Assembly (NCBI GenBank): GCA_011389735.1
Contig: JAABTS010000050.1
Location: 1-35,618 of the forward strand
Direction of reading: 5' to 3'
Origin: Desulfobacteraceae bacterium
GTDB lineage: Bacteria; Desulfobacterota; Desulfobacteria; Desulfobacterales; JAABTS01
Length of the DNA stretch: 35,618 nucleotides
Part shown: in pieces, positions 149 through 35,618 of the stretch
Position numbering within the stretch: the stretch's first letter is position 1
How the letters are laid out: every line of letters begins with the position of its first letter
The notes under the pieces: generated by a model
Databases searched by the model: none
Seen by the model: the letters and a program-made list of their open reading frames with translations, nothing else
What the model was told of the DNA's origin: nothing
Program-made: the position numbers and the translations under genes

Positions 149-154
149 TAAAAC

Positions 155-1206: not shown

Positions 1207-1235
1207 TTGAAAAACATAATTGTGAAATTATCACC

Positions 1236-1844: not shown

Positions 1845-1852
1845 CCAATAAA

Positions 1853-1880
1853 TTCATCGGATGAAACCGATGGTTTTATT
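1853..1880 (+). terminator. Possible weak intrinsic terminator after the HNH gene (stem CATCGG/CCGATG followed by TTTTATT)
   Basis: 6-bp perfect stem with a 6-nt loop, directly followed by a T-rich run. The stem is short, so confidence is low. Confidence 0.3.
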
Positions 1881-1928
1881 ATTATCTGATGATTTCTATC
1901 GTTATTTTTTAGAAGGAGGCGACAATCA

Positions 1929-2048
1929 ATGAGCAAAAAAATGCTTAAAATGCGGATATCCGGGGCGGGTTTTTGTTATAAAGAACATAAATCAGTTATC
2001 ATCTTTATAACTGTGTGTACATTAATCTTTTTCCAAATCAGGTTTTAA
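1929..2048 (+). CDS. Possible small hydrophobic peptide (39 aa, MSKKMLKMRISGAGFCYKEHKSVIIFITVCTLIFFQIRF), not in the supplied ORF track
   Basis: Strong SD (GAAGGAGG) 9 nt upstream of the ATG at 1929. The C-terminal ~20 residues form a plausible TM helix. The 3' end overlaps the convergent zinc-ribbon gene. Confidence 0.2.
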   Translation: MSKKMLKMRISGAGFCYKEHKSVIIFITVCTLIFFQIRF

Positions 2049-3074
2049 CTCAATTGCTTTATCAATGATCATTTCTTCATCTATATAATCATCCATTTCA
2101 TCAGCATCATGTGACTTTTCAATATCGGCTACTAAAGCGTTATATGCTTTTCGAAATAATGCTGGAGACATCTTTTTTATATTTCGATCTTCCCTCAAAT
2201 CCTCTGATATACATTCGCTATACAAATCAAACAATTCTAACTCATTCGATTTTTCAACCTTTTTTTGTTTCTCATATTCAGAAATTGTTTCTTCCGCTTG
2301 CCCTGCTGTCAATCCTTTGGGTATTTGAATATTGAAGAATCTATAAAAATCTTTTTGTCCTTTTAAAGCGGGGCGATTATTTAGCTTTTTAACATTTTTT
2401 TCATCGGACAATAAATCTTGCGCCTTATATTTTGCCGTTGTACTATTTAACCCCTTCAATGATACTTTAAAAAACTTGAGGATATCCTCAAAGCGTTCAA
2501 TTTCATCGCAATTATGTAAGCCTATGAGATCTGACAACTGACCCTTTGTCATTTTCTGATCTGCTTTAATTCCAAGTTTTCTAGCATATTTAATCTGGCG
2601 GTCGGTAGAATTATCAAAAAACCAATGTGGGGCAATATCCGGCGTCTCATCAATCTCTTTCCATTTCTTTTTTAGATATTCTAAATCCTCATTGTATTTT
2701 TTTTCTTCTGATGTCTCCTCATCAAGATGCCTTCCTTTAGCCGATTTGGCTTGTAACGATTTTGGCTGGGTTTGGATTCCATTCTTCCCTTTAAATTCTT
2801 CTATGTTTTTTTCATCTTCACTGCTTTTTGATTTTATTTTCTGCTTAACCAAAATAACGCTTATTATTAAAAATATTATTCCAGCAAAAGGACTCACTTT
2901 TAATGAAATAGTAATGACACAAAATAACATAATAATAAAACCAACTATTATAATAATAATTGGTATTTCTTTTTCTTCTGGGAAATTATTGCCACACTTT
3001 GGGCACTTGTTTTTCGTTTTATAAACAACATCAGAGTTAGAAATTTCATTCTTACATTTTTTACAAATTGGCAT
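2022..3074 (-). CDS. Zinc-ribbon membrane protein (N-terminal CxxC-x17-CxxC, two TM helices, Lys/Glu-rich cytoplasmic domain with an internally duplicated motif); function unknown
   Basis: The ORF extends to 3155, but MPICKKCKNE...CPKCGNNF starts at the ATG at 3074, which is the more plausible start. The hydrophobic stretch IPIIIIIVGFIIMLFCVITISLKVSPFAGIIFLIISVILV is TM-like. The internal repeat RQIKYARKLGIKADQKMTKGQLSDLIG / FFNIQIPKGLTAGQAEETISEY is present. AT-rich like the rest of the island. Confidence 0.6.
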   Translation of the reverse strand: MPICKKCKNEISNSDVVYKTKNKCPKCGNNFPEEKEIPIIIIIVGFIIMLFCVITISLKVSPFAGIIFLIISVILVKQKIKSKSSEDEKNIEEFKGKNGIQTQPKSLQAKSAKGRHLDEETSEEKKYNEDLEYLKKKWKEIDETPDIAPHWFFDNSTDRQIKYARKLGIKADQKMTKGQLSDLIGLHNCDEIERFEDILKFFKVSLKGLNSTTAKYKAQDLLSDEKNVKKLNNRPALKGQKDFYRFFNIQIPKGLTAGQAEETISEYEKQKKVEKSNELELFDLYSECISEDLREDRNIKKMSPALFRKAYNALVADIEKSHDADEMDDYIDEEMIIDKAIELKPDLEKD

Positions 3075-3361
3075 TTTAGTTACCATCTTTTTGAGAATAA
3101 CAGTGAACCATATAGCAAAAAAATATATTCGCTTTGGCTTTTCCAGTAAACCCAATCCAAAAGAATAAAAAAAAGATCCTTATTACATATCATGTCATAT
3201 TTCCCCTTTTTTTTATCCAATATCTTTATCAATGTCAATTGCCGATACAAGTTTTTCAGCGATCTGGGATTGATCCGTGAGTTTTTACGTACGCGAGGTG
3301 ATACCGGGAAGGGTGCGACGTCCGGAGGAATTCCGGAAACATGATACTTAATTATTGACAC

Positions 3362-8914: not shown

Positions 8915-8960
8915 ACCCAACTCCCTGACGGTTCAACGTCCGCATGCTTTCGAAAACAAG

Positions 8961-11096: not shown

Positions 11097-11109
11097 GATA
11101 CCCCTCCTG

Positions 11110-11727
11110 TTATTCTTCGTTATACTTTTCTACAAAATAGACGCCGTTTTCCCTGTCCTCGTCATAAACCAGAGCTTTGTCGCCCTTTATAAGAACGCCG
11201 CCGCCCGTTGTCCGCGCATGGATCGTAATCGGGGCCCCTCCGGTCAAAATTTCAACCTGCCCGAATGATGAATTGACCTGGCTGGTGACCACCGTCCCTA
11301 CTTGATACATGACCGAGCTTTCCTTTCGCTGATCGTTTTGTTTGAACATTTTTGCCAGAGGTTTCATGATAAAAGCGGTGATAAAAAACGAAACAATGAA
11401 ATTGGGTATCAGAAACGCCAGGCCGAGGAGAATTGAATGGGAAGGATTTAAAAAATAATTCAGAATCAATGAAAACCACCAGCAGCTCATGACCATTAAA
11501 GTGACTACGAACATGATCGGAACTTCGCCGAGACTCAAAAATTCCGTAATCGATGATAAAAAGCCTCCTGAACCGTCCACATCGATATCCGGAGTAATAT
11601 CCGCGTCTAAAAATTCGAGATCTATTCCTCCTAGAATGACCGCAAGCCAGTACAACATTGTAAGGCCGAAGATGACTGTAAAAGGAAGGTTGAGAGGCAT
11701 TACCGTCTGTTGCAGGAATTCAAACAT
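11110..11727 (-). CDS. NfeD/YqiJ-like membrane protein (multi-TM N-terminus, C-terminal OB-fold beta domain); usual partner of SPFH proteins
   Basis: 205 aa; 3-4 hydrophobic helices then GTVVTSQVNSSFGQVEILTGGAPITIHARTTGGGVLIKGDKALVYDEDRENGVYFVEK, typical of the NfeD short-form OB domain. Confidence 0.8.
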   Translation of the reverse strand: MFEFLQQTVMPLNLPFTVIFGLTMLYWLAVILGGIDLEFLDADITPDIDVDGSGGFLSSITEFLSLGEVPIMFVVTLMVMSCWWFSLILNYFLNPSHSILLGLAFLIPNFIVSFFITAFIMKPLAKMFKQNDQRKESSVMYQVGTVVTSQVNSSFGQVEILTGGAPITIHARTTGGGVLIKGDKALVYDEDRENGVYFVEKYNEE

Positions 11728-12104: not shown

Positions 12105-12140
12105 GGAGGATACGAATCGTATGATCCCAGGGCCGCCGCC
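12105..12140 (+). repeat. Copy 1 of a conserved ~36-nt intergenic element (GGAGGATACGAATCGTATGATCCCAGGGCCGCCGCC), reverse orientation relative to copies 2 and 3
   Basis: Its reverse complement GGCGGCGGCCCTGGGATCATACGATTCGTATCCTCC aligns almost base-for-base with 21067-21110 and 24329-24367. Confidence 0.8.
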
Positions 12141-12371
12141 TTGTGAAATTGAATTCGGGCCTGGTTCTAACTTCGGCCACGACCGCAGGTTGAATAATCT
12201 CACCGCAGAGACGCAGAGTTCGCAAACGTTAAATAAATTAAATGTTTTACGTTCTTTGCCCCTTTGCGGTGGAAAAATATTGGCCGGAAATGGAATCAAG
12301 CCCTTGAATTTCTGAAAACCCGTATCGTTTTTCAACATCCTTCCGGAACCTTGATTTCGAAACGCAACAGC

Positions 12372-13124
12372 TTATTGTTTCACAACGACACGGGTGTCGC
12401 AGATACGGTCATGAAGCGTCCTTTTCTGATCGTCAAACGCCGCAATCAGGTATCCTATGCAAAGTATGAAATAGCTGATATATTCAGCTAAATGCCGACC
12501 GAAAGCCAGTTTAAAACCAACCGGGGTTCCGTCCGAACGAACGATTCTCAGGCGGCACGCCATTTTTCCGGGAGTCGCTCCGTGTTTTCCAACAAACCAG
12601 GTTGAATAACCCGCTGCAATGACCATTTGCAATAAAAACGTCACTGCTGGAATAATGAGCGCAAGATCGCTTTCATAGGCTTCCAGAGTTTTCATCGCCA
12701 TCGATCCGGACACCCATGATAAAGAAGCATCGACTATCAGCAAAATGATCCCGTCGATGAACTTGGCGGCGAATCTGATCAGGAATCCGCCGTATTCCAT
12801 GATTCCCGGGAGCGGCGCTCCTTCGCGGACTTTCTGGATAAACAAGGGCTTGCAAGAACCGCATACCCAAAGTTCCTTGAAAGGGATCATTTCCGATTCC
12901 GGAAACAGGTTCCCGCATTCCGCGCAGGTTCGCATATCCGATTCTTCCGCCTCGACTTCGGGTTCAATGGTTTCGACATAATCGCCGAATTTGATCCAAT
13001 GGTCAAGGCCCGACCGCCATACCAGGGTGTCTGATTGAATTGTTCCGTCGGCTACAAATTGGTTGAATTCGTCTTCGGTCAACGGTCCGTATTGTTTCCC
13101 GGATAAGGCGTAATACCAGTTCAT
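12372..13124 (-). CDS. RDD-family membrane protein with N-terminal GYF-like (DUF4339-type) domain and a CxxC...CxxC zinc ribbon
   Basis: 250 aa; WYYALSGKQYGPLTEDEF...TLVWRSGLDHW (GYF-like); CAECG...CGSC; the RDD core is hydrophobic with the conserved R...D...D pattern in the C-terminal half. SD AAGGAG. Confidence 0.75.
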   Translation of the reverse strand: MNWYYALSGKQYGPLTEDEFNQFVADGTIQSDTLVWRSGLDHWIKFGDYVETIEPEVEAEESDMRTCAECGNLFPESEMIPFKELWVCGSCKPLFIQKVREGAPLPGIMEYGGFLIRFAAKFIDGIILLIVDASLSWVSGSMAMKTLEAYESDLALIIPAVTFLLQMVIAAGYSTWFVGKHGATPGKMACRLRIVRSDGTPVGFKLAFGRHLAEYISYFILCIGYLIAAFDDQKRTLHDRICDTRVVVKQ

Positions 13125-13226
13125 GTGGATCTCCTTGAAAAGCAGTTCGGTAATTCTGGGGGCATAATACAGACCTGCGAGGTTTTGAAAACCTCGCAGG
13201 TCTCAATTGTGTCCTTGGAATTAGCA

Positions 13227-14324
13227 TCATTGACTTCCAGACAGCCATTCCCGTTCAAAAGTGCGCCATTCGTCCGGATCTGTCGTCCAGCCGGCGTAAA
13301 CAGCGATTCCGAACATATCCAAACGGGACGGCTCGATTGATTGAAGCCCCATTTGAATTCCGTAAATCGCCGATTCTACATTTTCGGCTTCGGGGTGAAA
13401 TCCCTTGCTTTTATTTTCATAGGAAGGGATTCCCATGAACAACAGCACATTCGAATCCAGTACGGTTAAAAGCCGACTTGTCTGACGGCTCACGAGGGAG
13501 GAATATATCCAGTCGTAAGGAATGGCCGTATCATACATCATGACGGCGGCCTGATCGACGATTTCGGCGATTTCCCGGTAATAATCTAGTTTCCAGAAAC
13601 CGCCTGTTTTCATGAATGCTCTTGCGAGTACGTTGGCGCCGGCGAACGGCTCCGGCTTCTCGCAAGACACGGAGAGAATTTTATCGGTTTTGGAGGTTAT
13701 CCGTCGGGCTCGTTTCAATAGATCGATAAAATCCCGGTTCCCGGTGTAAATCGGTTCGATGTTGAAATGAACTCCGTCGAACCCGAGATCTAAAAAAATA
13801 CGGGCGGTGTTTACAATTTCACGGCGTATCCCCATATCGGACAGATTCAGAGGGCCCCCGCCTGCTTTTTCGATCTGACCGATCCATGCATGCATATTGA
13901 TCCGGCTCGTTCGGCTTTTTATCCGGGAAACGAGTTGAGCTGCAAAGGGATATTTTTCAAGTTCGATTTCGCCTTGAGCGTTCAACGGCCCTACATGAAA
14001 ATAAATGTCCGTAATTTTAAACCGTTCAGCCGTTTCGATCAATTGATTGTAGACGGCGTACTCGTGGGATTTACCTACCCAGTCATGTCTCGCCCACATG
14101 GCGTTTCTTCCTTTGGAGCCGAATTTGACCGAAGGCCCGGATCTGTAAATATAATAAGTGTAGGACGCGCCGCTGAAAACCAGCGCAATCAGAAAAATAA
14201 ATCCCGTCAGGAGGGCTTTGACCCAAGATTTCAAGATTCCGTCACCTGCTTTTTTTTTAACCTCCGCTGCTGTAAAAGCATCTGTTTTACCGGCCCACGC
14301 CGCCGCCCGGGCCTGGAAAACCAT
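13227..14324 (-). CDS. Membrane-anchored putative glycoside-hydrolase-like TIM-barrel protein (GH18-like, catalytic motif degenerate)
   Basis: N-terminal signal anchor (LLTGFIFLIALVFSGASY). LGFDGVHFNIEP resembles the GH18 DGxDxDWE motif but reads D-G-V-H-F-N-I-E. The track ORF begins with TTG at 14330; the ATG at 14324 is preferred. Confidence 0.45.
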   Translation of the reverse strand: MVFQARAAAWAGKTDAFTAAEVKKKAGDGILKSWVKALLTGFIFLIALVFSGASYTYYIYRSGPSVKFGSKGRNAMWARHDWVGKSHEYAVYNQLIETAERFKITDIYFHVGPLNAQGEIELEKYPFAAQLVSRIKSRTSRINMHAWIGQIEKAGGGPLNLSDMGIRREIVNTARIFLDLGFDGVHFNIEPIYTGNRDFIDLLKRARRITSKTDKILSVSCEKPEPFAGANVLARAFMKTGGFWKLDYYREIAEIVDQAAVMMYDTAIPYDWIYSSLVSRQTSRLLTVLDSNVLLFMGIPSYENKSKGFHPEAENVESAIYGIQMGLQSIEPSRLDMFGIAVYAGWTTDPDEWRTFEREWLSGSQ

Positions 14325-14400
14325 TATCAAGTCAAGCAGTTCGAGATGAATTTAAAATCAACGTCGCCGGAAAATCAGCTATTGTCGAAGTCTCCGAAAA

Positions 14401-20981: not shown

Positions 20982-21066
20982 CGATCCAGCCTCGACTATT
21001 GAATTACAAAATTACATTTCCCGGAACGGAAGGCCTGAATACAGGTTTTTCGAAATTGAATGCAGA

Positions 21067-21110
21067 CGGCGGCGGGCCTGGAATCATACGATTCGTTCGT
21101 ATATCCCGGT
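21067..21110 (-). repeat. Copy 2 of the ~36-40-nt intergenic element (ACGGCGGCGGGCCTGGAATCATACGATTCGTTCGTATATCCCGGTG), immediately 3' of proB
   Basis: Aligns with 24329-24367 and with the reverse complement of 12105-12140. Its core GAATCATACGATTC is a dyad. Confidence 0.8.
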
Positions 21111-24427: not shown

Positions 24428-25777
24428 TTAGACCACGCCCTGGTCGATCATGGCGTTCACCACTTTCAAGAAGCCCGCGATATTGGCGCCCTTTAGATAA
24501 TTGCCGGGCGCTCCATACTCTGTGGATGCGTCCATGCAGGTTTTGTGAATATTTTCCATGATCAGCTTCAGTCGGCGATCCACTTCTTCCCGGGTCCAAT
24601 TCAGCCGGGAGCTGTTCTGTGACATTTCAAGTCCCGATACGGATACTCCGCCGGCGTTGGCGGCTTTGCCGGGGCCGTAGAGAATGTCGTTGTCTAGAAA
24701 AATATCGACACCGTCCGGAGTGGTCGGCATATTCGCGCCTTCGGAAACTAGAAACACCTTGTTGTTAACCAGGTTTTGAGCGTCTTTGGCGTTGATTTCA
24801 TTTTGAGTGGCGCTGGGAAATGCGCAATCGCCCTGATAGTTCCAGAGAGGGTTGAAATCGGCGATCGGATCGATCGGCGTGTAAACCGCCTCCGGATATT
24901 TGTCAACGTATTCTTTGATCCGGCCTCTTCTGATGTTTTTCAAGGTTTTTACATAAGCCAGTTTTTGGACGTCGATTCCTTTTTCATCGTAGATGCAGCC
25001 TGACGAATCTGAAAGAGTGACCACTTTGGCGCCGAGTTCGATGAGTTTTTCCGCAGTGAACTGGGCCACGTTGCCGGAACCGGAAACGATGCAGGTTTTG
25101 TCTTTTATGCTCAGATTCCGAGTTTTCAGCATTTCGACGGCGAAGTAGACCGAACCGTATCCGGTGGCTTCGGGCCGAATCAGGCTTCCGCCCCAATTGA
25201 TGCTTTTGCCGGTCAGGACGCCGGTGAATTCGTTTCGGATTTTTTTGTACATGCCGAACAAAAATCCGATTTCGCGCGCCCCTACCCCGATATCGCCGGC
25301 GGGAACGTCCGTGTTGTGGCCGATATGCCGAAACAGTTCCAGCATGAAACTCTGGCAGAACCGCATCACCTCGCCGTCGGATTTTCCCTTGGGATCGAAA
25401 TCCGACCCGCCTTTGCCCCCGCCCATGGGAAGCGTGGTCAGCGCGTTCTTGAACACCTGCTCGAAGGCAAGAAATTTCAATATGCCGAGGTTGACCGACG
25501 GGTGAAATCTTAAACCGCCTTTGTAAGGTCCGATACAACTGTTCATTTCGACACGGTATCCCCGATTGACCTGAACTTCGCCCCGATCATCGACCCAGGG
25601 GACGCGAAACAGGATAACCCGTTCCGGTTCCACAAGACGCTCCAGAATCTTCAATTGAGCATATTCCGGGTTCTGGTCAATAACGGGTTTCACGGATTCA
25701 AACACCTCGCTCACCGCCTGATGAAATTCACGTTCATTCGGATCTTTTTCCTTAACATAGGTCAAAATATCAAGCAT
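24428..25777 (-). CDS. gdhA: NADP-specific glutamate dehydrogenase
   Basis: 449 aa; GDH signature LPMGGGKGGSDFDPKGKSD, dinucleotide fold GSGNVAQF. Strong SD AAGGAGGAG. Confidence 0.95.
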   Translation of the reverse strand: MLDILTYVKEKDPNEREFHQAVSEVFESVKPVIDQNPEYAQLKILERLVEPERVILFRVPWVDDRGEVQVNRGYRVEMNSCIGPYKGGLRFHPSVNLGILKFLAFEQVFKNALTTLPMGGGKGGSDFDPKGKSDGEVMRFCQSFMLELFRHIGHNTDVPAGDIGVGAREIGFLFGMYKKIRNEFTGVLTGKSINWGGSLIRPEATGYGSVYFAVEMLKTRNLSIKDKTCIVSGSGNVAQFTAEKLIELGAKVVTLSDSSGCIYDEKGIDVQKLAYVKTLKNIRRGRIKEYVDKYPEAVYTPIDPIADFNPLWNYQGDCAFPSATQNEINAKDAQNLVNNKVFLVSEGANMPTTPDGVDIFLDNDILYGPGKAANAGGVSVSGLEMSQNSSRLNWTREEVDRRLKLIMENIHKTCMDASTEYGAPGNYLKGANIAGFLKVVNAMIDQGVV

Positions 25778-25845
25778 CTTACTCCTCCTTGTGTTAATAG
25801 GCTATGGCTTATATAGTCTTCCACAAATTAAATTGCCGTAAACAT

Positions 25846-25970
25846 TTAAGGCATCCTTCATAAACCCAGGAAAGTGGTTGACACTTTCCAAGTCGGGATC
25901 CCGATCCCGATCCCGATAGCGATCCCGATTTCAAAGTGTAAACCGACAGATGAAGGATGCCACATTTAAT
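25846..25970. repeat. MITE/REP-like composite element. Terminal 12-nt inverted repeats GGCATCCTTCAT/ATGAAGGATGCC enclose an 8-bp perfect hairpin (GGAAAGTG-gttga-CACTTTCC) and a (CCGATC)3-4 / GGGATC hexamer tract (25893-25933).
   Basis: All repeats are read directly. The hexamer tract is the reverse-orientation relative of the tracts at 33332-33353 and 35577-35598. Confidence 0.7.
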
Positions 25971-26266
25971 AACGAAAAGCTCATGTTACCTTACTAAAAA
26001 AAAACAATACCTGTATACTGAATCCTGATATCAGACCCATAATTTAAAGGCAAGCGATTGATGAAAGGAAATATAATTTCCGCATATATCAAAAACAATC
26101 ATCCTGATGAAAAAAACAGGTTGAAATTCGATCCGAGATTGAATATAGATACAGGTTTGCGGTTAACCCATTTGAATTGAAAGAAATAGTTAGCCGCTCT
26201 GAAAAAATGCGGTTATTTATAAGCTGTAATTAATTCAGCGATATTTATCTTTCAGGAGAAATCATT

Positions 26267-27397
26267 ATGTGCAGATTGTTTGCAATTACAAGCGAAACTC
26301 CTCTTTCTCCCATGCGGGCGCTCGAAGCGCTGGACGTTATGCGTGAAGGGCATGACGGTTCGGGCGTGGGCCTGTTCATGCGGGATTTGGGAGGCCCGTT
26401 TGAATACATGAAAGAGGCGCCGATTTTATCCGGCATATTCACTGAAACCGGTATCAAGCGGCTGGATGATTTCATGATGGAAATCGGATTTTTGACCAAA
26501 TACCGTTTATCCATCCATATTTCCGAGGCGCCGCCGCCGGGGATTCCCCAACGGGATGTTTATCTGATCCGGGCTTATGATTATCCCAAATCCTGGAACC
26601 GGTTGAGCGCCCGTGAGAAGTACGCCCGGCTGCTGATTCTTCGTTTGGAGCTTCAGGAAATGGGAATGGCTGAAAATGATATGATCGTTTTTTCCTTCTG
26701 GCCGGATGTCATCATGATCAAAGAGATCGGTGATCCTTTGAGCGTGGCGGAGCATCTTCAGATTGACCGGGCTGAAATCCAGGCCGGGGTGATTATGGCT
26801 CAAGGACGCCAGAACACCAATTACGCCATTGATTTATACGCCTGCCATCCGTTTTTCCTGGAAGGTTATTCCACCATGACCAACGGTGAAAATACGGCGT
26901 TCGTTCCCATCAAGGAATATCTGATATCAAGAGAATTTCACGGTTACCGCGGATATCAGTCCGATTCGGAAGTGTTCACGCATATACTTCATTATACGAT
27001 TGCGAAACTCGGCCTTGAAATCGAATGTTACAAGCATATAGTCACGCCCTTGAAGGACGAGGATATCGATGTCCATCCTGACGCGGTCTTGTTGAAGCAT
27101 TTAAAACACACATGCAGGCGGCTTATCATCGACGGGCCGAATTGCGTGATCGGCAGCCTGCCGGATCACAGCCTGTTCATGGTTCAGGACAGCAAGAAGC
27201 TCAGGCCCGGCGTTGTCGGAGGGCGGCCCGGCGTTTTCGCTTTTTCTTCGGAGATTTGCGGTCTGGACGCGGTGATCCCGGACCGGGACAGGTCAAAAGA
27301 TTTTCAACCCATGCATCTGGACACCGCCATAGTCGGCCCGGATCGACAGGAGGTAAAAATATGTTCTCAGACCCAGCCGTTGCCCCTTTTTCATTAA
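26267..27397 (+). CDS. Class-II (Ntn) glutamine amidotransferase domain protein: N-terminal subunit of a split, archaeal-type glutamate synthase
   Basis: Begins MCRLFAITSE... (catalytic Cys2 after the initiator Met) and has the GltB-N-like fold. SD AGGAGA. Confidence 0.8.
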   Translation: MCRLFAITSETPLSPMRALEALDVMREGHDGSGVGLFMRDLGGPFEYMKEAPILSGIFTETGIKRLDDFMMEIGFLTKYRLSIHISEAPPPGIPQRDVYLIRAYDYPKSWNRLSAREKYARLLILRLELQEMGMAENDMIVFSFWPDVIMIKEIGDPLSVAEHLQIDRAEIQAGVIMAQGRQNTNYAIDLYACHPFFLEGYSTMTNGENTAFVPIKEYLISREFHGYRGYQSDSEVFTHILHYTIAKLGLEIECYKHIVTPLKDEDIDVHPDAVLLKHLKHTCRRLIIDGPNCVIGSLPDHSLFMVQDSKKLRPGVVGGRPGVFAFSSEICGLDAVIPDRDRSKDFQPMHLDTAIVGPDRQEVKICSQTQPLPLFH

Positions 27398-28995
27398 GCC
27401 TTAAAGATTTGCCCTGGTGGATAGACTGGGACAATTCCAAGTGTACGCTTTGCGGCAAATGCACGGCGGTTTGTCCTGTTCACGCCATCGAGCTGGGCGT
27501 TTTCAGGCGGCGAAAGGTTCAGACTCCGCTCAATTTCAGCGCACAGCCGTCCCAGGAAACGTCTTTGTATTATGGAATCCGCCAGAAGACCGATCCGGCG
27601 TCCGCCTGTATCGGCTGCGCCATGTGTTCCATGGTGTGTCCGAACGACGCCATCATTCCAAGACGTTCCGATGAGGCCGACAAGCTTCGCTATCATGTCG
27701 ATCAGGGCGGTTCCCCTCGAAATCGCGGGGGCCGCCGGAATGTATCCGAAAGCCTGCTCGACCGGATCAAGTTCATTCGAATTTCCATGCTGACCGACCC
27801 GGCTCTGGACGCAGGCCGGCACGAATTTGAACTAAAAACGCTTTTGGGGCGCGTTCTTCCCCCTGAAGAAAACTTCAGGCGCATGAAAGAGCGTGAATGG
27901 ATACCGCCGATCAGGGAAATTTATCCGTTGATCATCGGATCCATGTCCTTCGGCGCTTTATCGCCGAATATGTGGGAAGGGCTCCAGTTGGGAGTCGCCT
28001 ATTTGAACGAGGAGCTGAAAATGCCGGTGCGTATTTGCACGGGCGAAGGCGGATGTCCTCCGAGACTTCTTAGAAGCCGATTCTTGAAATATGTCATTCT
28101 TCAGATCGCCAGCGGGTATTTCGGGTGGGATGAAATCATTCACGCCATACCGCATATGAAAGAAGATCCGTGCGCGGTCGAGATCAAATACGGCCAGGGG
28201 GCCAAGCCAGGGGACGGGGGCCTGCTCATGTGGTACAAGGTCAACAAGCTGATATCGGCCATTCGAGGCGTTCCCATGGGCGTCAGTCTTCCCAGTCCGC
28301 CGACGCATCAGACCAAATATTCGATCGAGGAATCCGTGGCCAAGATGATCCAGTCCATGTCCATGGCCTGGGGGTTCCGGGTGCCGGTGTATCCCAAAAT
28401 ATCCGGGACATCTACGGCCGCCGCGGTGTTGAACAACCTGTCCAGGAATCCTTATGCTTCGGGATTGTCCATTGATGGAGAGGACGGAGGCACGGGGGCT
28501 GCGTACAACGTGTCCATGAACCACATGGGGCACCCTATCGCAAGCAATCTCCGGGATTGTTATCTCAATCTGGTCAAAATCGGACGCCAGAACGAAATCC
28601 CGCTTTTCGCCGGCGGCGGAATCGGCAAGAACGGCAATCTGGCGGCCAACGCCGCCGCCCTGATCATGTTAGGAGCCAGCGGGGTTCAAATCGGGAAATA
28701 CATAATGCAGGCGGCCGCCGGATGTGTCGGTTCCGAATCCGACCGCTGCAACATTTGCAATATCGGCCGATGTCCCAAGGGCATTACGTCACAGGATCCG
28801 AGACTTTACCGGCGTCTGGACGTGGACCTGGTCGCACGGCGGGTTGTGGACGTGTACCTCTCGTTTGATACGGAATTAAAAAAGATCGTGGCGCCTTTGG
28901 GCCGGTCCACCACGCTTCCGATCGGCATGTCGGACGCCCTCGGAATCAATGATCCCGCCGTGGCCGAACGTCTTGATATTAAATATGTGGTTTAG
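27361..28995 (+). CDS. Glutamate synthase FMN-binding (central GltB) domain protein with N-terminal 2x[4Fe-4S] ferredoxin
   Basis: CTLCGKCTAVCP and CIGCAMCSMVCP clusters. FMN/GltS core (PLIIGSMSFGALSPNMWEGL..., GEGGCPP..., AKPGDGGLL..., FAGGGIGKNGNLAANAAALIMLGASGVQIG). The start at 27361 has a GGAGG SD and overlaps the upstream gene by 37 nt. The track ORF's longer N-terminus (from 27112) is an out-of-frame read-through. Confidence 0.85.
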   Translation: MFSDPAVAPFSLSLKDLPWWIDWDNSKCTLCGKCTAVCPVHAIELGVFRRRKVQTPLNFSAQPSQETSLYYGIRQKTDPASACIGCAMCSMVCPNDAIIPRRSDEADKLRYHVDQGGSPRNRGGRRNVSESLLDRIKFIRISMLTDPALDAGRHEFELKTLLGRVLPPEENFRRMKEREWIPPIREIYPLIIGSMSFGALSPNMWEGLQLGVAYLNEELKMPVRICTGEGGCPPRLLRSRFLKYVILQIASGYFGWDEIIHAIPHMKEDPCAVEIKYGQGAKPGDGGLLMWYKVNKLISAIRGVPMGVSLPSPPTHQTKYSIEESVAKMIQSMSMAWGFRVPVYPKISGTSTAAAVLNNLSRNPYASGLSIDGEDGGTGAAYNVSMNHMGHPIASNLRDCYLNLVKIGRQNEIPLFAGGGIGKNGNLAANAAALIMLGASGVQIGKYIMQAAAGCVGSESDRCNICNIGRCPKGITSQDPRLYRRLDVDLVARRVVDVYLSFDTELKKIVAPLGRSTTLPIGMSDALGINDPAVAERLDIKYVV

Positions 28996-29015
28996 CGATA
29001 AAACGGAGAAACCGT

Positions 29016-31349
29016 ATGGATAATAATGAAGAATATTTTGTGATATCGGGAAAAATCAACGGAAAACGGATCGAATCGAGAATTCTCGAAGAAAAATTGC
29101 AAAAGGCCGTTGAATCCGGACATCGCCGGATAAAAGTCAATGCTTTCGGCCAGCATGGGATCGGCGGACGGCTTTGGAGAGCGGGCGGCGAACCCGTCGA
29201 GATTGTCGTGGAGGGCCATTCGGGGCAAAGGGTGGGATCCATGGGATTTCCCAACACCGTCATCGAATTGACGGGCCCGGCGTCCGATGACGTGGGATGG
29301 TTGAACTCAGGCGCGGAAATCGTAATTCACGGCCACGCGTCCAACGGCGTCGCCAACGCAATGGCCCAGGGGAAAATCTATGTTTCCGGCAATATCGGAT
29401 CTCGCGGGATGACCATGACCAAACGGAATCCACGGTTCGATCCTCCGGAACTATGGGTGCTGGGATCGGTCGGAGACTATTTCGGCGAATTCATGGCGGG
29501 CGGAGTCGCTGTTATCTGCGGCGTCGCCCCTCAGGATCGGGACGATATTCTGGGATACAGGCCGTTTGTGGGCATGGTCGGCGGTTCGGTTTTTTTTCGG
29601 GGGCCTTACAAAGGATTCAGCCGGGCGGATTCGAAAATCGTGGATATTACGGATTCCGACTGGAACTGGTTAACGTCGAATCTGGAGATATTCACCCGGA
29701 AGATCGGGAAACCCGAACTTTTGGAAACCTTGTCCGATCGTTCCGAATGGCGCCTGATCAAGGCGCTGACCCCTTTGGAGCGCGGCGGCAAAACAAACCG
29801 GGCCATGTCCGATTTTCGAAAAGCGGTGTGGGAAAAAGATCTGGGAACAGGTGGGTTGATCGGCGATCTGGTGGATTTCGACCGCGGCTTGATTCCTGTA
29901 ATCACAACCGGGGATTTAAGACGATACAAACCGGTCTGGGAGAACCGGAAATATGATCCGCCCTGCGCCGCGACCTGCCCGACTGGAATTCCGGTTCACC
30001 GCCGATGGCGTTTGATCCGTGAAGGGAAAGTGGATGAGGCCGTAGCGCTGGCCTTGGAGTACACGCCTTTTCCGGCGTCGGTTTGCGGTTATCTCTGTCC
30101 GAACTTGTGCATGCAGTCCTGCACCCGTGAATCGGCGATGTTGCCGGCCGTGGACGTCACGCTGCTTGGCAAAGAAAGCATCAAGGCCGGAATTCCGGAA
30201 ATTCCCAAACCCCTTGGAGGGCGCGTAGCCGTGATCGGCGGCGGACCGGCGGGCGTTTCCACGGCGTGGCAGCTTCGGATCATGGGACACGAGGCTGTTA
30301 TCTATGATATGGCTGAAACCCTGGGAGGCAAACTGGCGTCCGCTATTCCGGAAGACCGGATTCCGCCCGAGGTTTTGAGCGCGGAACTTGAACGGGTGAA
30401 AGCGGTCATCCCCAATGTCGGCCTTGAAAAACGGCTTTCCCGCGAGGATGTGGAAAAACTGAAATCCGAATTCGATTACGTGGTTCTGGCCACGGGCGCT
30501 CAAAAACCGAGAGTCCTCGACTTTCCGGGCAAGGAACGGATGATCACGAGCCTTGACTTTTTGAGACGGGCCAAGAAAGGGAATATCAAGCCCGGCGAAC
30601 GTATGGTCATTATAGGAGCCGGGAATGTAGGTTGCGATGTCGCGGCGGCCGGAAAAAGGCTTGGAGCCGAAAGCCTTTTGCTGATCGATGTTCAGGAACC
30701 GGCGTCGTTCGGCAAGGAGCGAAAACACGCTGAAGACGCCGGCGCTGAATTCCGGTGGCCGTGTTTCACCAGAGAGATTACGGAACAGGGCGTGGTTTTG
30801 TCCACCGGAGAGTTAATCCCGGCCGACATGGTGGTCATTGCAATCGGAGACGCCCCGGATCTCGATTTTCTGCCGGACAGCGTCGCCACGGACGCCGGAT
30901 ATGTCCTTGTTGACGAAAACTTCAGGACATCCGACGAAAAAGTGTTCGCAGTGGGAGATATGGTCAGGCCGGGGCTGTTGACCGATTCCATCGGCTCGGG
31001 CCGCGGAGCGGCGCAGACCGTTCACAAACTTTTGGCGGGCGGAGCCGAATGTAACGGGGAACGCGACATGATAGATCGAAACCGGGTCAAAACGGAATAT
31101 TTTGATCCGCGGCTCGCCGCATTCGACGATATCCAAGACGCGGCGTCGCAATGCGCATCCTGCGGAGATTGCCGGGATTGTGGAATCTGCATTGAAATTT
31201 GCCCCCGTTCAGCCATATCCAGGACGCCGTTGTCCGGAGAACCTTACGAATATGTGGTGCATGAAGACCGGTGTATCGGATGCGGATTTTGTGTCGGAGC
31301 TTGTCCGTGCGGCGTTTGGAATCTTATTGAAAATTTCGGGTTGATGTAA
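29016..31349 (+). CDS. Fusion of the glutamate synthase GXGXG (GltB C-terminal) domain with a GltD-like FAD/NAD(P)H oxidoreductase and a C-terminal 2x[4Fe-4S] ferredoxin
   Basis: N-terminal beta-helix GXGXG repeats (VVEGHSGQRVGSMG, IVIHGHASNGVANAMAQGKIYVSGNIGSRGM). GltD-like Cys cluster (CAATCPTG...CGYLCPNLCMQSCTR). Rossmann motifs VAVIGGGPAGVS and VIIGAGNVGCDVA. C-terminal CASCGDCRDCGICIEICP / CIGCGFCVGACPCG. Confidence 0.85.
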   Translation: MDNNEEYFVISGKINGKRIESRILEEKLQKAVESGHRRIKVNAFGQHGIGGRLWRAGGEPVEIVVEGHSGQRVGSMGFPNTVIELTGPASDDVGWLNSGAEIVIHGHASNGVANAMAQGKIYVSGNIGSRGMTMTKRNPRFDPPELWVLGSVGDYFGEFMAGGVAVICGVAPQDRDDILGYRPFVGMVGGSVFFRGPYKGFSRADSKIVDITDSDWNWLTSNLEIFTRKIGKPELLETLSDRSEWRLIKALTPLERGGKTNRAMSDFRKAVWEKDLGTGGLIGDLVDFDRGLIPVITTGDLRRYKPVWENRKYDPPCAATCPTGIPVHRRWRLIREGKVDEAVALALEYTPFPASVCGYLCPNLCMQSCTRESAMLPAVDVTLLGKESIKAGIPEIPKPLGGRVAVIGGGPAGVSTAWQLRIMGHEAVIYDMAETLGGKLASAIPEDRIPPEVLSAELERVKAVIPNVGLEKRLSREDVEKLKSEFDYVVLATGAQKPRVLDFPGKERMITSLDFLRRAKKGNIKPGERMVIIGAGNVGCDVAAAGKRLGAESLLLIDVQEPASFGKERKHAEDAGAEFRWPCFTREITEQGVVLSTGELIPADMVVIAIGDAPDLDFLPDSVATDAGYVLVDENFRTSDEKVFAVGDMVRPGLLTDSIGSGRGAAQTVHKLLAGGAECNGERDMIDRNRVKTEYFDPRLAAFDDIQDAASQCASCGDCRDCGICIEICPRSAISRTPLSGEPYEYVVHEDRCIGCGFCVGACPCGVWNLIENFGLM

Positions 31350-31391
31350 AATCAATATTGTACTATTAATATAAAATACGTTACATTTCAG

Positions 31392-31531
31392 GAATGTTGA
31401 ATTTTGAATTTTGAATGTTGAATGTTGAATGTTGAATTTTGAATGTTGAATTTTGAATTTTGAATGTTAGATGTTGAATGTTGAATGTTAAATGTTAAAT
31501 GTTAAATGTTAAATGTTGAATGTTAGATGTG
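31392..31531 (+). repeat. Tandem heptanucleotide array, ~20 units of GAATGTT (variants GAATTTT, AAATGTT, AGATGTT)
   Basis: Read directly; the units are contiguous with no spacer. Lies directly upstream of the XPB-like helicase gene. Confidence 0.95.
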
Positions 31532-31543
31532 AGTCCCCCATTT

Positions 31544-31596
31544 AGCATTCAACATACAACATTCAACATAAATAATTTAGCATTCAACATAACATT
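31544..31596 (+). repeat. Inverted copies of the heptamer (ATTCAACATA x3, i.e. reverse complement of ATGTTGAAT) between the array and the helicase start codon
   Basis: AGCATTCAACATACAACATTCAACATAAATAATTTAGCATTCAACATAACATT can base-pair with the upstream (GAATGTT)n array. Confidence 0.8.
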
Positions 31597-31603
31597 TGGA
31601 AAG

Positions 31604-33316
31604 ATGGCGACGATAAACCCTTCAAATCCACTGATCGTTCAAGGAGATTATACGGTTCTGGCGGAAGTCGACAGCCCCGGCTTTACAGCCGCCAGGAATC
31701 GTTTGGTGCGATTCGCGGAATTGATTAAATCCCCTGAATACATTCATACGTATCGAATCACGCCGCTTTCCATATGGAACGCATGCGCATCCGGGATATC
31801 GAAACATGAAATCGGAGACGCGCTCGAAGAATATTCCAAATATCCTGTTCCGGAACATGTTCTCGCCCAAATCGGCGATTATATTTCACGTTACGGAAGG
31901 CTGAAGATTTTAAAAGAGGAAGGCCGTTTGATTCTGGACGCCGAGGACCGGCGGCTCGCCAGGGAAATCGAAAACGACAAGACGCTTCGAAAATTGATCG
32001 ACGGCAATATATCGCCGACACGGTTTATCGTTCCGGCGGTGAACCGGGGTAGAATAAAACAGGCGTTGATCAAGGCCGGATATCCCGCTGAAGATATGGC
32101 CGGATATACGGAAGGCAATCCGCTCCTCTTTACCCTGCGTTCCCCTTCCCTTTCAGGCGCCCCTTTTGAACTAAGATCTTATCAGCGGCAGGCGGCCGAT
32201 TCATTTCACGCCGGCGGTTCGCCACAGGGGGGATCGGGCGTCATTGTTCTTCCATGCGGCGCCGGGAAAACCATTGTGGGCATATCCTGCATGGAAAAGT
32301 TACAAACATCGACCTTGATTTTAACGACCGGAACCACCGCGGTCAAGCAATGGAAAAGCGAACTAATTGATAAAACCACGCTGACCGAAGACCAAATCGG
32401 GGAATACACGGGCGAAAAAAAAGAAATCCGGGGCGCCACGCTTTCCACCTATCAAATCATGACCTATCGCAGCAAAAAAGATCCGGATTTCAAACATCTG
32501 TCCCTTTTTGAGGAACAAAATTTCGGGCTGATCATTTATGACGAAGTGCATATGCTGCCGGCGCCCATATTTCAAATCACGGCGGGATTACAGGCCAGAC
32601 GGCGGTTAGGCCTGACCGCCACGCTCGTGCGGGAAGACAACCGGGAAGATGATGTTTTCGCTCTGATCGGCCCCAAAAAAATGGATTCCCCGTGGAAAGA
32701 ACTGGAGTCTCAGGGATGGATCGCATGCGCCGCATGTTGTGAAATTCGGATTCCGCTGCCCGAAGATCTCCAGGTGCTTTACGCCGTGGCCGAACGGCGA
32801 AAAAAATTCCGGATCGCATCGGAGAATCCCCGAAAGATAGACATTGTGCGCCGTCTCATATCCAATCACGAACATCATCAGATTCTTGTCATCGGCCTGT
32901 ATTTGGAGCAGTTGCGGACGATCTCCGAAGAAATGAACATCCCCGTCATTACGGGAAAAATGTCTCAAACAAACCGCGACGACCTTTACCGGAGATTCAG
33001 AGCCGGCGAAATCAGATGCATGGCGGTTTCAAAGGTCGCCAATTTTGCGATAGACCTTCCGGACGCTTCCGTTGCTATCCAGATTTCAGGAACATTCGGA
33101 TCAAGGCAGGAGGAGGCCCAACGCCTGGGGCGCATACTGAGACCCAAACCGGGAGAAAACCAGGCCCATTTTTATACGCTGGTGACAAAAGATACGATTG
33201 AACAGGACTTTGCGCTTAACCGGCAACTATTTCTGTGCGAACAGGGATACGCCTATGAAATCAGGGATGAAGGGATAGGTTCTAACTTCGGCCATCAGTT
33301 TAGTGATTGGGCTTGA
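31604..33316 (+). CDS. XPB/Rad25 (ERCC3)-type SF2 DNA helicase
   Basis: Motif I VLPCGAGKTIVGI; Ia TTGTTAVKQWKSEL; II IIYDEVHMLPA; III and RED motif LGLTATLVREDNREDDVFALIGPKKMD; VI EEAQRLGRILR. The N-terminal ~200 aa are consistent with a damage-recognition domain. The start at 31604 (GGAAAG SD) is preferred over the track start at 31520, which lies inside the repeat array. Confidence 0.9.
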   Translation: MATINPSNPLIVQGDYTVLAEVDSPGFTAARNRLVRFAELIKSPEYIHTYRITPLSIWNACASGISKHEIGDALEEYSKYPVPEHVLAQIGDYISRYGRLKILKEEGRLILDAEDRRLAREIENDKTLRKLIDGNISPTRFIVPAVNRGRIKQALIKAGYPAEDMAGYTEGNPLLFTLRSPSLSGAPFELRSYQRQAADSFHAGGSPQGGSGVIVLPCGAGKTIVGISCMEKLQTSTLILTTGTTAVKQWKSELIDKTTLTEDQIGEYTGEKKEIRGATLSTYQIMTYRSKKDPDFKHLSLFEEQNFGLIIYDEVHMLPAPIFQITAGLQARRRLGLTATLVREDNREDDVFALIGPKKMDSPWKELESQGWIACAACCEIRIPLPEDLQVLYAVAERRKKFRIASENPRKIDIVRRLISNHEHHQILVIGLYLEQLRTISEEMNIPVITGKMSQTNRDDLYRRFRAGEIRCMAVSKVANFAIDLPDASVAIQISGTFGSRQEEAQRLGRILRPKPGENQAHFYTLVTKDTIEQDFALNRQLFLCEQGYAYEIRDEGIGSNFGHQFSDWA

Positions 33317-33321
33317 AGTTT

Positions 33322-33390
33322 TTGAATCCAAATCGGGATCGGGATCGGGATCGTTATCGAAGGATTCAATTTCGATCCCGATACCGATAA
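33322..33390 (+). repeat. GGGATC hexamer element copy B: TTGAATCC-(AAATCGGGATCGGGATCGGGATCG)-TTATCGAA-GGATTCAA then TTTCGATCCCGATACCGATAA
   Basis: 8-bp inverted repeat TTGAATCC/GGATTCAA around the hexamer tract (33332-33353). Shares the CGATACCGATA tail with copy C. Confidence 0.8.
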
Positions 33391-33459
33391 ATGAAAATGG
33401 CCGAAGATAGAACCGGGCCGGGGATGAATCACGCCGTGTGACAAATTAACAGGTGGCTT

Positions 33460-35469
33460 ATGTACAATTTACCTTCAGATTGGATTCAGTTAATCGATTT
33501 TCTTGAAAAATGGAACGGTCTGAGCGCCCGAGGCAGACGTTTGTTTTTGAATTTCAAAAAAGAATGCAGCAAATCCAAAACATCGAAACCGGACCACCGG
33601 TTCGCCGAGCTGGTCGACGCCGGGTTTTTAATTCAAAATTCAAAAAAAACACCTGAAATCCGGGAAGATCTGAAACCTTACGCCGACACCCTGTCCGTCA
33701 TGGAAAAGATTCCCTTGTTTGACGGGAAAGCCGATAAAAATCTTCTTTCAGTATATCTGGACGCCCATTTCCGTTATTCGCATAAACGGGCCCTCGAAAC
33801 CGGGCTAAACTGCAATTACGGCGGGTTCGGGACGGATATACTGGTTCGTGAACTGGCGAATCCCGGAAGGCTTGACGATTTTCTGGAAACCCGCTCGTAT
33901 TCGGACTGGGAACGCCGTTATTCAAAATGTGAGATCGAATTTTTTGACACCGAAGAAATATTCGGCATGACTCAGACACTGGTGAGGCATTGTCTTGAAA
34001 AACAAAATCCACTGCATGTCGGCCGGATATGCAAGCTTTTTCCGGACAAGGAAACAGTCAAAATATCAAAGGCGGTATCCGCCGGCGTTTACTACGCCTT
34101 GCTGTTTTTGGCGTTGAGAACTTCCGATCTGGAATCCCGGGCCGGTGTCTGGCCGTCGATTTTTCAGAGAGCCAGACGGTCCAAACCCGTAAAACCCCGG
34201 CAGGCGACCCCCGAAACCGTATTCAGCCGGTCCGTTTTGATGGAGGACATGACCCATGCGGCGGTTCAAGCGTGCCTTGAACCGTTGCGGATCAAACTGG
34301 ACGGAAACGGTATCTACCAGCGGGACTTGAAACAACTGGAACCGGGGCTCGTTCAGGTTCCCCCCTGGGTCAACGACCTTTTTGATTGCAGCGCTTCCGG
34401 CCGCCTGGAAAAAGCGGTTCAATTTCTGCGACTTTTCAATCTTATCGAATACAAAGGCTCTCCCGGCAAAAACAGGAGGATTGAAACAAGCGACGACGGC
34501 CGGCGATGGCTCGATTTGTCCGAAACGCAGCGTGTTATATTCATTCTGGAACGGATGCGGCGTCATAATGAAAGAAATGTGGCATTCGAAGATGTCGATC
34601 ACAGTGAACGTTCCTTTGATTATTTGAATCCGTATCCGCCCATGCGAAGTATCGGACTGGATAAGAATCTTCGCCGCTGGATCGCCGATGCGTTTAAAAA
34701 TATCCCGCTGGATACGTTCTACAAGATCGATACCTTTCTTTATCATGAAAAGCTGCAAAACAATCCATTGTTAAAAATCGCCGGTCCTGACGACCTTATT
34801 CAAGTTTATGTCAAAAATTCACTTATCCCTCCGGATGAGGAAGACCTTGAAAATATCTGGGAAACCCTGATTTATCAGTTTTTAGGATCATCTCTGGCGT
34901 ATACGGGCGCCGCTTCCGTAAGCGCTCTGAAAGATGGAAGCCTGGCTTTCGCCCTGACGGACTTGAGCCGTTATTTGTTGAATCCCGAGAAAGCGCGCCG
35001 GCCGGTCGAGGACAAAACCCCTTCCGTTCTTATCCAGCCGGATTTCGAAATCATTTTTTTGTCTCCGTCGCCTGGAGCGGAACGCCGCATCGGCCGGTTC
35101 GCCGAACGAATCGGATATCATATCGGCGCCATGTTTAAAATTACGAAAGCTTCCATATTCCAGGCCGCGGGCGCCGGCGTGACCTGTGAAACCGTGCTGA
35201 ACACTCTTGACCGAATCGCCATAGGCCCGATACCCGCCAACGTTAAAGGCGAAATTATAGGATGGTTTGAACAGTTCAAATGCGTCCGTATAGAATCCGG
35301 AAATCAAATCCGCTGCGACGACCGAACCACCACCAGGCTGATTTTAACCGCTCTGGGCGACCACTTCAAACCCGTTTCCGACTGTATCCTCAGAATACGA
35401 AACACCGCCCCTAAAAAAACCATCACCCAGAAACTCATGGGTATCGGCGTTTTCGTCAAGACTGAATAA
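33460..35469 (+). CDS. Uncharacterised 669-aa protein, candidate functional partner of the XPB-like helicase
   Basis: AGGTGG SD 5 nt upstream; same strand as the helicase and 143 nt downstream of it. No catalytic motif could be recognised by eye. Bracketed by hexamer elements B and C. Confidence 0.8.
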   Translation: MYNLPSDWIQLIDFLEKWNGLSARGRRLFLNFKKECSKSKTSKPDHRFAELVDAGFLIQNSKKTPEIREDLKPYADTLSVMEKIPLFDGKADKNLLSVYLDAHFRYSHKRALETGLNCNYGGFGTDILVRELANPGRLDDFLETRSYSDWERRYSKCEIEFFDTEEIFGMTQTLVRHCLEKQNPLHVGRICKLFPDKETVKISKAVSAGVYYALLFLALRTSDLESRAGVWPSIFQRARRSKPVKPRQATPETVFSRSVLMEDMTHAAVQACLEPLRIKLDGNGIYQRDLKQLEPGLVQVPPWVNDLFDCSASGRLEKAVQFLRLFNLIEYKGSPGKNRRIETSDDGRRWLDLSETQRVIFILERMRRHNERNVAFEDVDHSERSFDYLNPYPPMRSIGLDKNLRRWIADAFKNIPLDTFYKIDTFLYHEKLQNNPLLKIAGPDDLIQVYVKNSLIPPDEEDLENIWETLIYQFLGSSLAYTGAASVSALKDGSLAFALTDLSRYLLNPEKARRPVEDKTPSVLIQPDFEIIFLSPSPGAERRIGRFAERIGYHIGAMFKITKASIFQAAGAGVTCETVLNTLDRIAIGPIPANVKGEIIGWFEQFKCVRIESGNQIRCDDRTTTRLILTALGDHFKPVSDCILRIRNTAPKKTITQKLMGIGVFVKTE

Positions 35470-35570
35470 TGGTTTCGTATCGTCTTCCGGTAATCAAATT
35501 TCAGTGCGTTATCGGCCGGAGATATACGAGTTGTATTATCCGGCATCCTTCATTTCTTGTTTACAGTTTC

Positions 35571-35618
35571 ATCAAAATCGGGATCGGGATCGGGATCGTA
35601 ATAATTCGATACCGATAC
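35571..35618 (+). repeat. GGGATC hexamer element copy C (AAAATCGGGATCGGGATCGGGATCGTAATAATTCGATACCGATAC), at the window edge
   Basis: Same orientation and near-identical core to copy B. Truncated by the window end. Confidence 0.8.

Follow-up and report, generated by a model that had tools for sequence, protein, structure and literature searches.

Hexamer tracts at three intergenic sites of a Desulfobacteraceae contig are probably the cores of small, independently inserted MITE-like elements

Three intergenic sites in a contig of a Desulfobacteraceae bacterium carry tandem GGGATC hexamers, and two of these sites lie on either side of a single gene encoding a 669-aa protein. An earlier note on this DNA had read the arrangement as a trace of past mobilisation or recombination of that gene, and the hexamers as dense GATC clusters with a possible role in methylation or mismatch repair. 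What, then, are these tracts, and how did they come to bracket a gene? Here, we analyse the whole contig, a window of 35,618 nucleotides whose best protein matches are to Desulfococcaceae and Desulfonema.

The tracts themselves are well supported. The exact 21-nt sequence ATCGGGATCGGGATCGGGATC occurs three times in the window (25897-25917 on the minus strand; 33332-33352 and 35577-35597 on the plus strand) and in none of 100 dinucleotide-preserving shuffles, while GGGATCGGGATC, allowing at most one mismatch, has eight matches in the window against 0.75 expected. Tandem Repeats Finder resolved a period-6 array at each site, with 5.5 units and 85% matches in tract A (25897-25929, minus strand) and 3.7 units each and 100% matches in tracts B (33332-33353) and C (35577-35598). 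Tract A had been placed at 25893-25933, and the tract proper is slightly shorter; on the plus strand it reads as GATCCC units with one variant, GATAGC. The described relation between B and C also holds: they have the same orientation, share the tail CGATACCGATA (33379-33389 and 35607-35617; none expected) and enclose the 669-aa gene (33460-35469, plus strand) as the sole open reading frame between them. With an nhmmer profile of A, B and C, exactly these three copies were retrieved in the window.

In the published definition (PMC11602168), prokaryotic MITEs are 50-800 bp long and have inverted termini of at least 10-15 bp and target-site duplications of 2-10 bp. Very probably, the three (GGGATC)n tracts form the central arrays of small, non-coding, palindromic elements of this kind. 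Element A (25850-25961, with GGGATC on the minus strand) is 112 bp long. Its terminal inverted repeats, GGCATCCTTCAT at 25850-25861 and 25950-25961, are complementary at 12 of 12 positions, and a perfect 8-bp target-site duplication, ACATTTAA, abuts both termini (25842-25849 and 25962-25969), which bears out the earlier description of this copy as embedded in a MITE-like structure. In a strict scan for inverted termini with an adjoining duplication, A was the only match, at a background rate of 1%. The element folds as a long hairpin (DNA ΔG of -26/-27 kcal/mol, z-scores of -6.9/-5.5). It lies 72 nt upstream of the start of gdhA (25777, minus strand) and 305 nt upstream of the start of the glutamate synthase operon (26267), and a promoter scan found neither sigma-54 nor sigma-70 promoters at A. 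The gdhA-glt junction was not found in relatives, which either have other genes ahead of the glt operon or are represented by too short a contig; an empty site would be expected to carry a single ACATTTAA.

Element B (33272-33420, plus strand) is a 149-bp palindromic insertion at the 3' end of an XPB helicase gene (31604-33316, plus strand; NF045503 equivalog, 843 bits, residues 9-553 of 570). Its terminal inverted repeats, GGTTCTAACTTCGGCCAT at 33278-33295 and 33397-33414, match at 17 of 18 positions, and the outermost 6 nt at its ends are non-complementary. The element is enclosed by the 8-bp duplication GGGATGAA (33264-33271 and 33421-33428), the left copy of which lies in the XPB codons for ...R-D-E. 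The hexamer array (33332-33359, plus strand) consists of ATCGGG three times followed by ATCGTTATCG, and pairs with an inverted partner array at 33373-33389 on the same strand, CGATCCCGATACCGATA, to give an apex hairpin. Folding is strong both as DNA (ΔG of -36.5 kcal/mol, z-score of -6.7) and as RNA (-65 kcal/mol, z-score of -6.9).

The closest relative found (L116), in which XPB is 85% and the 669-aa protein 74% identical, provides the empty site. B is absent from the orthologous locus of L116, and a single homologous copy stands at the position of its duplication. In-silico excision of 33272-33428, that is B with one copy of the duplication, restores an XPB of 562 residues, exactly the L116 length, and leaves stop codon, CAGGTGGCTT and ATG, with 10 nt between stop and ATG, where L116 has TAG, CAGGCGGCTT and ATG. 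The present XPB takes its final 14 codons and its stop from B (33272-33316), and the ancestral tail ...DESRRVTN* is still legible from 33421 to 33449. Alignment of the start with L116 places the true start of XPB at 31604. The annotated gene is thus wrong at both ends, its start having been extended across a heptamer array and its tail rewritten by the insertion. On this comparison, B would have landed in the last codons of XPB and exchanged a six-residue ancestral tail for 14 element-encoded residues. It would also have lengthened the spacer between XPB and its partner gene, 10 nt before the insertion and 143 nt after it, and introduced a strong predicted hairpin (RNA ΔG of about -65 kcal/mol) into the bicistronic transcript. 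Neither the conserved core of XPB nor the partner gene's ribosome-binding site is disrupted. The locus offers a clean natural case in which an insertion gave a DNA-repair helicase a new tail and separated two tightly spaced genes.

Element C (35542-35618, plus strand; at least 77 bp) starts 72 nt past the stop of the 669-aa gene and is matched by the nhmmer profile with an E-value of 1e-15. It begins with the terminus GGCATCCTTCAT (35542-35553), followed by the array (35577-35598) and the tail (35607-35617), and is cut off by the end of the contig at 35618, so that this copy is incomplete. Because C is truncated, its insertion is inferred from the terminus and core that it shares with A; it would be an insertion like A, with an expected 8-bp duplication of TATTATCC. 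Repeats often break contigs in short-read assemblies, and C as a repeat accounts for the contig break. An exact copy of the B-type terminus, GGTTCTAACTTCGGCCA, stands alone, with no array, in an intergenic region of 644 bp (12163-12179, plus strand), and a search for the B-type terminus gave three matches in the window against 0.09 expected. By their termini the elements form two subtypes, A and C with GGCATCCTTCAT and B with GGTTCTAACTTCGGCCAT, the latter pattern also being written GG(G/C)CCYGGTTCTAACTTCGGCCA.

Taken together, three copies and one solo terminus are dispersed over 35.6 kb of a single contig that ends inside C. All three copies are small and non-coding; no open reading frame with its own start codon was found inside the elements, and the open frames that run through the arrays have no element-encoded starts. 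With the inverted termini and duplications of A and B and the empty site of B, these features make it highly probable that the copies belong to a family of small, palindromic, non-autonomous MITE-like elements, each inserted independently. Each copy would have arrived separately by a cut-and-paste type of insertion, in which a staggered 8-bp cut in the target would generate the 8-bp duplication seen at A and B. The transposase would act in trans and would be encoded outside the window; no transposase gene was found within the window, nor was an autonomous insertion sequence with matching termini. In the predicted fold, the apex of each element's long hairpin would be formed by the (GGGATC)n array together with its inverted counterpart (CGATCCCGATACCGAT), and the arrays are therefore best regarded as part of an element's cargo or structure and not as an independent genomic signal. 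The position of B and C around the 669-aa gene would be incidental, the result of two independent insertions into DNA rich in repeats.

This account bears directly on the proposed mobilisation of the 669-aa gene. A composite or cassette-like unit bounded by B and C as direct repeats would have moved the gene in, and the common orientation, the shared 21-nt array and 11-nt tail, and the presence of exactly one gene between the copies are what such a unit would show. Its cargo should be absent or non-syntenic in relatives without the repeats, and one duplication should enclose the whole unit. Instead, L116 has the 74%-identical ortholog 10 bp after XPB in a contig with no tract anywhere, which is the syntenic arrangement that the earlier note had named as one half of the evidence against its own proposal. 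A and B each have their own 8-bp duplication, and B is excised cleanly in silico. The 669-aa protein also shares the Helicase_C_3 domain (Pfam PF13625) with the N-terminus of XPB, and in a more distant relative (L150) such a Helicase_C_3 partner overlaps XPB. Moreover, there is no transposase or integrase next to the gene, and the outer termini of B and C differ. Inspection by eye for integron attC sites showed no core or inverse-core motifs, and XPB with its partner is not a cassette array. Mobilisation of the gene between B and C is thus most improbable; the gene is a Helicase_C_3 partner of XPB that lies in no mobile unit, and a false lead on its history is removed. The reading of the tracts as functional GATC clusters, serving Dam-type methylation, SeqA- or MutH-like binding or an epigenetic switch, draws on the three to five GATC sites within the 22-33 bp of each tract, but it fares no better. 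If GATC were the signal, it should be conserved or enriched. The window contains GATC often but without bias (263 sites, 7.4 per kb, observed/expected 0.96), and the elements account for just 11 of these sites. In related arrays GGGATC is replaced by GCTATC, GAAATC, GGTATC or GTTATC, so that the homologous arrays keep ATCG and not GATC. The tracts, furthermore, came inside inserted elements. To our knowledge, SeqA and MutH are confined to some Gammaproteobacteria, whereas the best matches of this genome are to Desulfobacterales. We consider this role extremely unlikely.

The strong hairpins in intergenic DNA, with B and C downstream of stop codons, could also be taken for intrinsic terminators or for REP-like elements moved by a RAYT-type transposase. 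An intrinsic terminator combines a GC-rich stem with a U-run, but the stems here have no T-run, a terminator scan returned nothing at A, B or C, and in the relative the operon into which B falls is uninterrupted. REP elements are shorter palindromes and are not known to duplicate their target on insertion; A and B have duplications of 8 bp. Either identity is very unlikely. A further proposal is that the array with its inverted partner is a module used by the host, as a binding array for a repeat-binding protein or as a structured RNA, by analogy with intergenic short tandem repeats such as TAACTGA in Beggiatoaceae; the MITE shell would then be only its vehicle. One architecture, in which hexamers repeat ATCG at 6-nt intervals and are followed by a short loop and an inverted array, recurs with different flanks in intergenic DNA of other Desulfobacterales (L009, L105 and L084), of Thiohalocapsa, Thiosymbion and Binatia, and of others. 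The glt-XPB spacer of the window is filled by a heptamer version, (GAATGTT)19 with inverted units, and regulatory roles have been proposed for short intergenic tandem repeats (PMC4679880). Nevertheless, this cross-genome sample was picked by a search for GGGATC x3, so that the shared unit is partly circular. The array hairpins of other genomes gave no matches in the strict scan for 8-bp duplications and are therefore not claimed to be the same kind of MITE. The matches listed from the GGGATC x3 scan of genome collections were mostly high-GC arrays without an inverted partner, which gave no usable census; about a dozen loci among them, from genomes of roughly 50% GC, were informative, and in high-GC DNA a stop-to-stop ORF classification failed to tell coding arrays from non-coding ones. 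Rfam gave no match, no candidate binding protein was found, and relatives are without arrays at the same loci. Nor is there a constant position or orientation relative to gene starts, A lying upstream of one, B inside an operon and C past a stop. A host-used module is accordingly doubtful. It is similarly a rather improbable idea that the array-loop-inverted-array hairpin, seen here with ATCGNN hexamers and, 1.7 kb upstream, in the GAATGTT heptamer version, is a transferable functional module carried across phyla by different MITE shells, although this would account for an interior that shows more conservation than the termini. By analogy, such a module could be bound by a transposase, in the manner of Ac/Ds subterminal repeats, or by a host repeat-binding protein. 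The recurrence of array-hairpin cores in several phyla poses a modest question.

Several other interpretations were tried and rejected. Small peptides of the (IG)n or (DP)n type are not encoded by the arrays: the only ATG of A spans the junction of duplication and terminus, B lacks a start and is directly preceded by a stop, and the conserved positions follow no codon logic. No tRNA-derived termini were found. A G-quadruplex fails across copies, B and C having only three G3 runs.

The MITE-like elements resemble described prokaryotic MITEs, such as Correia/NEMIS and RUP, in their length of 112-149 bp, non-coding nature, inverted repeats of 12-18 bp and 8-bp duplication. They are likewise mostly intergenic, differ in presence between relatives, and form long hairpins that can be co-transcribed and can change gene ends. 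They differ in that the interior, the hexamer array and its inverted partner, is better conserved between subtypes than the termini; a core common to elements with different termini is the reverse of the usual MITE, in which the ends are conserved and the interior is variable. No similarity to described families was found by literature string searches or in Rfam and plasmids. In particular, plasmid BLAST of A and B gave no match, and the Rfam 15 covariance models found nothing at gathering score in the window, with generic hairpin noise at B (E-values of about 0.8-5). The 12-nt terminus is too short for scanning genome collections. A metagenome scan for the A/C terminus with the array returned 27 loci, nearly all chance matches with one doubtful case (L119), and a scan of viral contigs gave two arrays, both unrelated. 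Across about 94 kb of sequence from relatives there are no such arrays, compared with three in 35.6 kb here, a distribution that fits a lineage-specific expansion.

Ac/Ds-type (hAT) elements are eukaryotic and have terminal inverted repeats of 11-12 bp, an 8-bp target-site duplication and subterminal hexamers in both orientations. The elements described here resemble them in their short inverted termini, 8-bp duplication and two-orientation hexamers, a likeness that is one of resemblance only; no hAT-like transposase was found here. As pure inference from this likeness, the hexamers may be bound by the transposase in the Ac/Ds fashion.

The MITE-like family is undescribed so far and belongs to an uncultured lineage related to Desulfococcaceae and Desulfonema. 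The finding behind the tracts is real but ordinary, and its value lies mainly in annotation, where it accounts for a contig break and for three odd intergenic features. TAACTGA repeats of Beggiatoaceae and Cyanobacteria are direct repeats in intergenic DNA just upstream of start codons (PMC4679880). The hexamer arrays share with these and with the cyanobacterial STRR heptamers a unit of 6-7 nt, intergenic tandem arrangement and a patchy phylogeny (PMC4679880), but they run to just 3.7-5.5 units, have an inverted partner array and lie within inserted units that carry inverted termini and duplications, whereas TAACTGA repeats have no transposon hallmarks. The hexamer arrays thus fall outside that class of direct arrays placed just upstream of starts, to which the (GAATGTT)19 array may belong.

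Three copies of the 21-nt sequence ATCGGGATCGGGATCGGGATC are present in the window, at 25897-25917 (-), 33332-33352 (+) and 35577-35597 (+), against zero in shuffled sequence; Tandem Repeats Finder places period-6 arrays of 5.5, 3.7 and 3.7 units at these tracts, here A, B and C. Copies B and C also have in common CGATACCGATA (33379-89 and 35607-17), and 33460-35469 is the sole ORF between them; the description of the tracts in the earlier note is accurate. Each tract lies within a longer element. Element A (25850-25961) ends in termini GGCATCCTTCAT that are complementary at 12/12 positions and directly abutted on both sides by the duplication ACATTTAA (25842-49 and 25962-69). A strict scan for inverted termini with a duplication covered 21 array loci plus 300 randomly chosen positions (background rate 1%), and element A was the only array hit. 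Element C opens with the same 12-mer (35542-53) and shares with A the next segment, GTTTACA..TTT..AAATCGGGATCG, but is cut by the contig end, the window being the entire NCBI contig (35,618 bp). Element B (33272-33420) has termini GGTTCTAACTTCGGCCAT and GGTTCTATCTTCGGCCAT (17/18), flanked by GGGATGAA at 33264-71 and 33421-28. Long imperfect hairpins are predicted for all elements (DNA z-scores -5.5 to -6.9; -65 kcal/mol for element B as RNA), with the predicted apex made up of the hexamer array plus a partial array in inverse orientation (CGATCCCGATACCGAT).

The history of element B can be read from the closest relative found (L116, a Logan contig), in which XPB and the 669-aa protein are 85% and 74% identical to those of the window. 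Its gene order is glt-XPB-669 aa-ECF sigma, no hexamer array is present anywhere in the contig and only 10 nt separate the stop codon of XPB from the ATG that follows. In-silico deletion of 33272-33428 yields a 562-aa XPB, exactly the length of that in L116, and a junction that reads ...EIRDESRRVTN* followed by CAGGTGGCTT-ATG, compared with ...EIRDGWHLMKN* and CAGGCGGCTT-ATG in L116. Because the deletion restores an L116-like XPB length and junction, element B is a true insertion that duplicated 8 bp of its target. It has rewritten the XPB tail, where the final six codons gave way to 14 supplied by the element. The conserved core of XPB, residues 9-553 (model positions 1-547), is unaffected.

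In the earlier note, the bracketing of the 669-aa gene by the direct repeats B and C had suggested past mobilization or recombination. Mobilization of the gene is rejected: it is syntenic with XPB in the repeat-free L116, the more distantly related L150 also has a Helicase_C_3 partner that overlaps XPB, element B has its own target duplication, and the outer termini of B and C differ. The bracket is coincidental. The proposal that the tracts act as GATC signals for methylation or mismatch repair fared no better, as the 263 GATC sites of the window, 11 of them inside elements, show no bias (observed/expected 0.96), and related arrays vary the unit but keep ATCG. What stands is two independent insertions, A and B, with 8-bp target duplications, of elements with palindromic architecture and no coding capacity. 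Insertion-sequence families that make 8-bp duplications exist, and a DDE-type transposase acting in trans with 8-bp staggered cuts would mobilize the elements. Since the contig breaks at element C, we infer that they are multicopy in the genome. That the hexamer array is a binding site rather than a mere hairpin apex is speculative.

In their features, the elements match prokaryotic MITEs as defined in the literature (PMC11602168). No Rfam or plasmid match, no tRNA, and no terminator or promoter in the respective scans was found at the elements, and string searches of the literature returned nothing relevant. The elements are an undescribed MITE-like family, a real but ordinary feature. Arrays of at least three ATCGNN units were absent from about 94 kb from relatives (loci L116, L150, L151 and L144-L147, the last group including the complete Desulfonema limicola genome), against three in the window, and from Markov simulations. 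A profile built from A, B and C found no further copies in the window. The terminus of element B recurs alone as an exact 17-mer, GGTTCTAACTTCGGCCA (12163-12179), immediately after one copy of a 46-nt repeat found in two intergenic regions (12112-12157 and 21051-21096; 80% complementary, inverted). This second repeat family may be the source of element B's ends. The genome-wide pattern scan was dominated by high-GC matches; among the matches listed, intergenic hairpins of array, loop and inverted array occur in another Desulfobacteraceae genome (L009, L105) and a Desulfobacterales genome (L084), with others in Thiohalocapsa, Thiosymbion, Binatia and elsewhere. One arm, at L009, is recognizably like that of element A; none of the other-genome array hairpins passed the strict duplication scan. 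The array core is common to elements with different termini and to hairpins in other phyla, the common hexamer unit being partly a product of the search design.

The same architecture recurs at 31392-31590, where a (GAATGTT)19 array, a 14-nt spacer and inverted AACATTC-type units fill nearly the whole glt-XPB spacer. This heptamer array resembles intergenic tandem repeats of Beggiatoaceae and Cyanobacteria (PMC4679880) and is absent from L116, whose glt-XPB spacer is similar in length and unrelated in sequence.

The surrounding genes are gdhA (24428-25777, -), an archaeal-type split glutamate synthase (26267-31349), XPB (NCBIfam equivalog NF045503, 843 bits) and the gene for the 669-aa protein, which has a C-terminal Helicase_C_3 domain; the best protein matches, 74-80% identical, are from Desulfococcaceae, Desulfonema and other Desulfobacterales. 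The 598-aa XPB ORF (NCBI protein P0123) begins within the heptamer array (region 31520-31603). As the L116 alignment and the NF045503 model both put the first codon at 31604, for a product of 570 aa, the deposited annotation probably includes 28 extra codons. Likewise, the 627-aa ORF of the glutamate synthase FMN-domain subunit overlaps a 376-aa amidotransferase-like gene by 286 nt (27112-27397); its real start is probably near 27361, since the products in relatives are 544-554 aa with an overlap of about 37 nt. A word-indexed search of 5.8 billion proteins returned only two proteins for the 669-aa partner (itself and the L116 ortholog), although thousands of relatives exist for XPB itself; the partner is fast-evolving or lineage-specific. 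The XPB partner of L150 has 602 residues and is encoded upstream of XPB.

At the contig start, a low-GC stretch that is possibly a foreign islet (1-3155; 0.32-0.37 versus about 0.5 elsewhere) encodes a HigB-like toxin, an HTH antitoxin, a Fis-type HTH protein, an HNH endonuclease and a 377-aa ORF with no Pfam hit. Shortly before higB lies a perfect 25-bp direct repeat (81-131), operator-like in appearance. The gene at 3362-11727 (-) encodes an 1852-aa protein with DUF3686 ('ATPase involved in DNA repair'), DUF7902, an AAA domain and C-terminal ankyrin repeats, adjoined upstream on the minus strand by 711- and 205-aa proteins with no Pfam hit. The locus could be a conflict or defense-type system; PADLOC gave weak matches only, to the ankyrin region. 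Finally, a near-perfect palindrome at 13151-13223 (36-nt arms, 81% complementary, 1-nt spacer) sits in the short spacer between the minus-strand genes 12372-13124 and 13227-14330.
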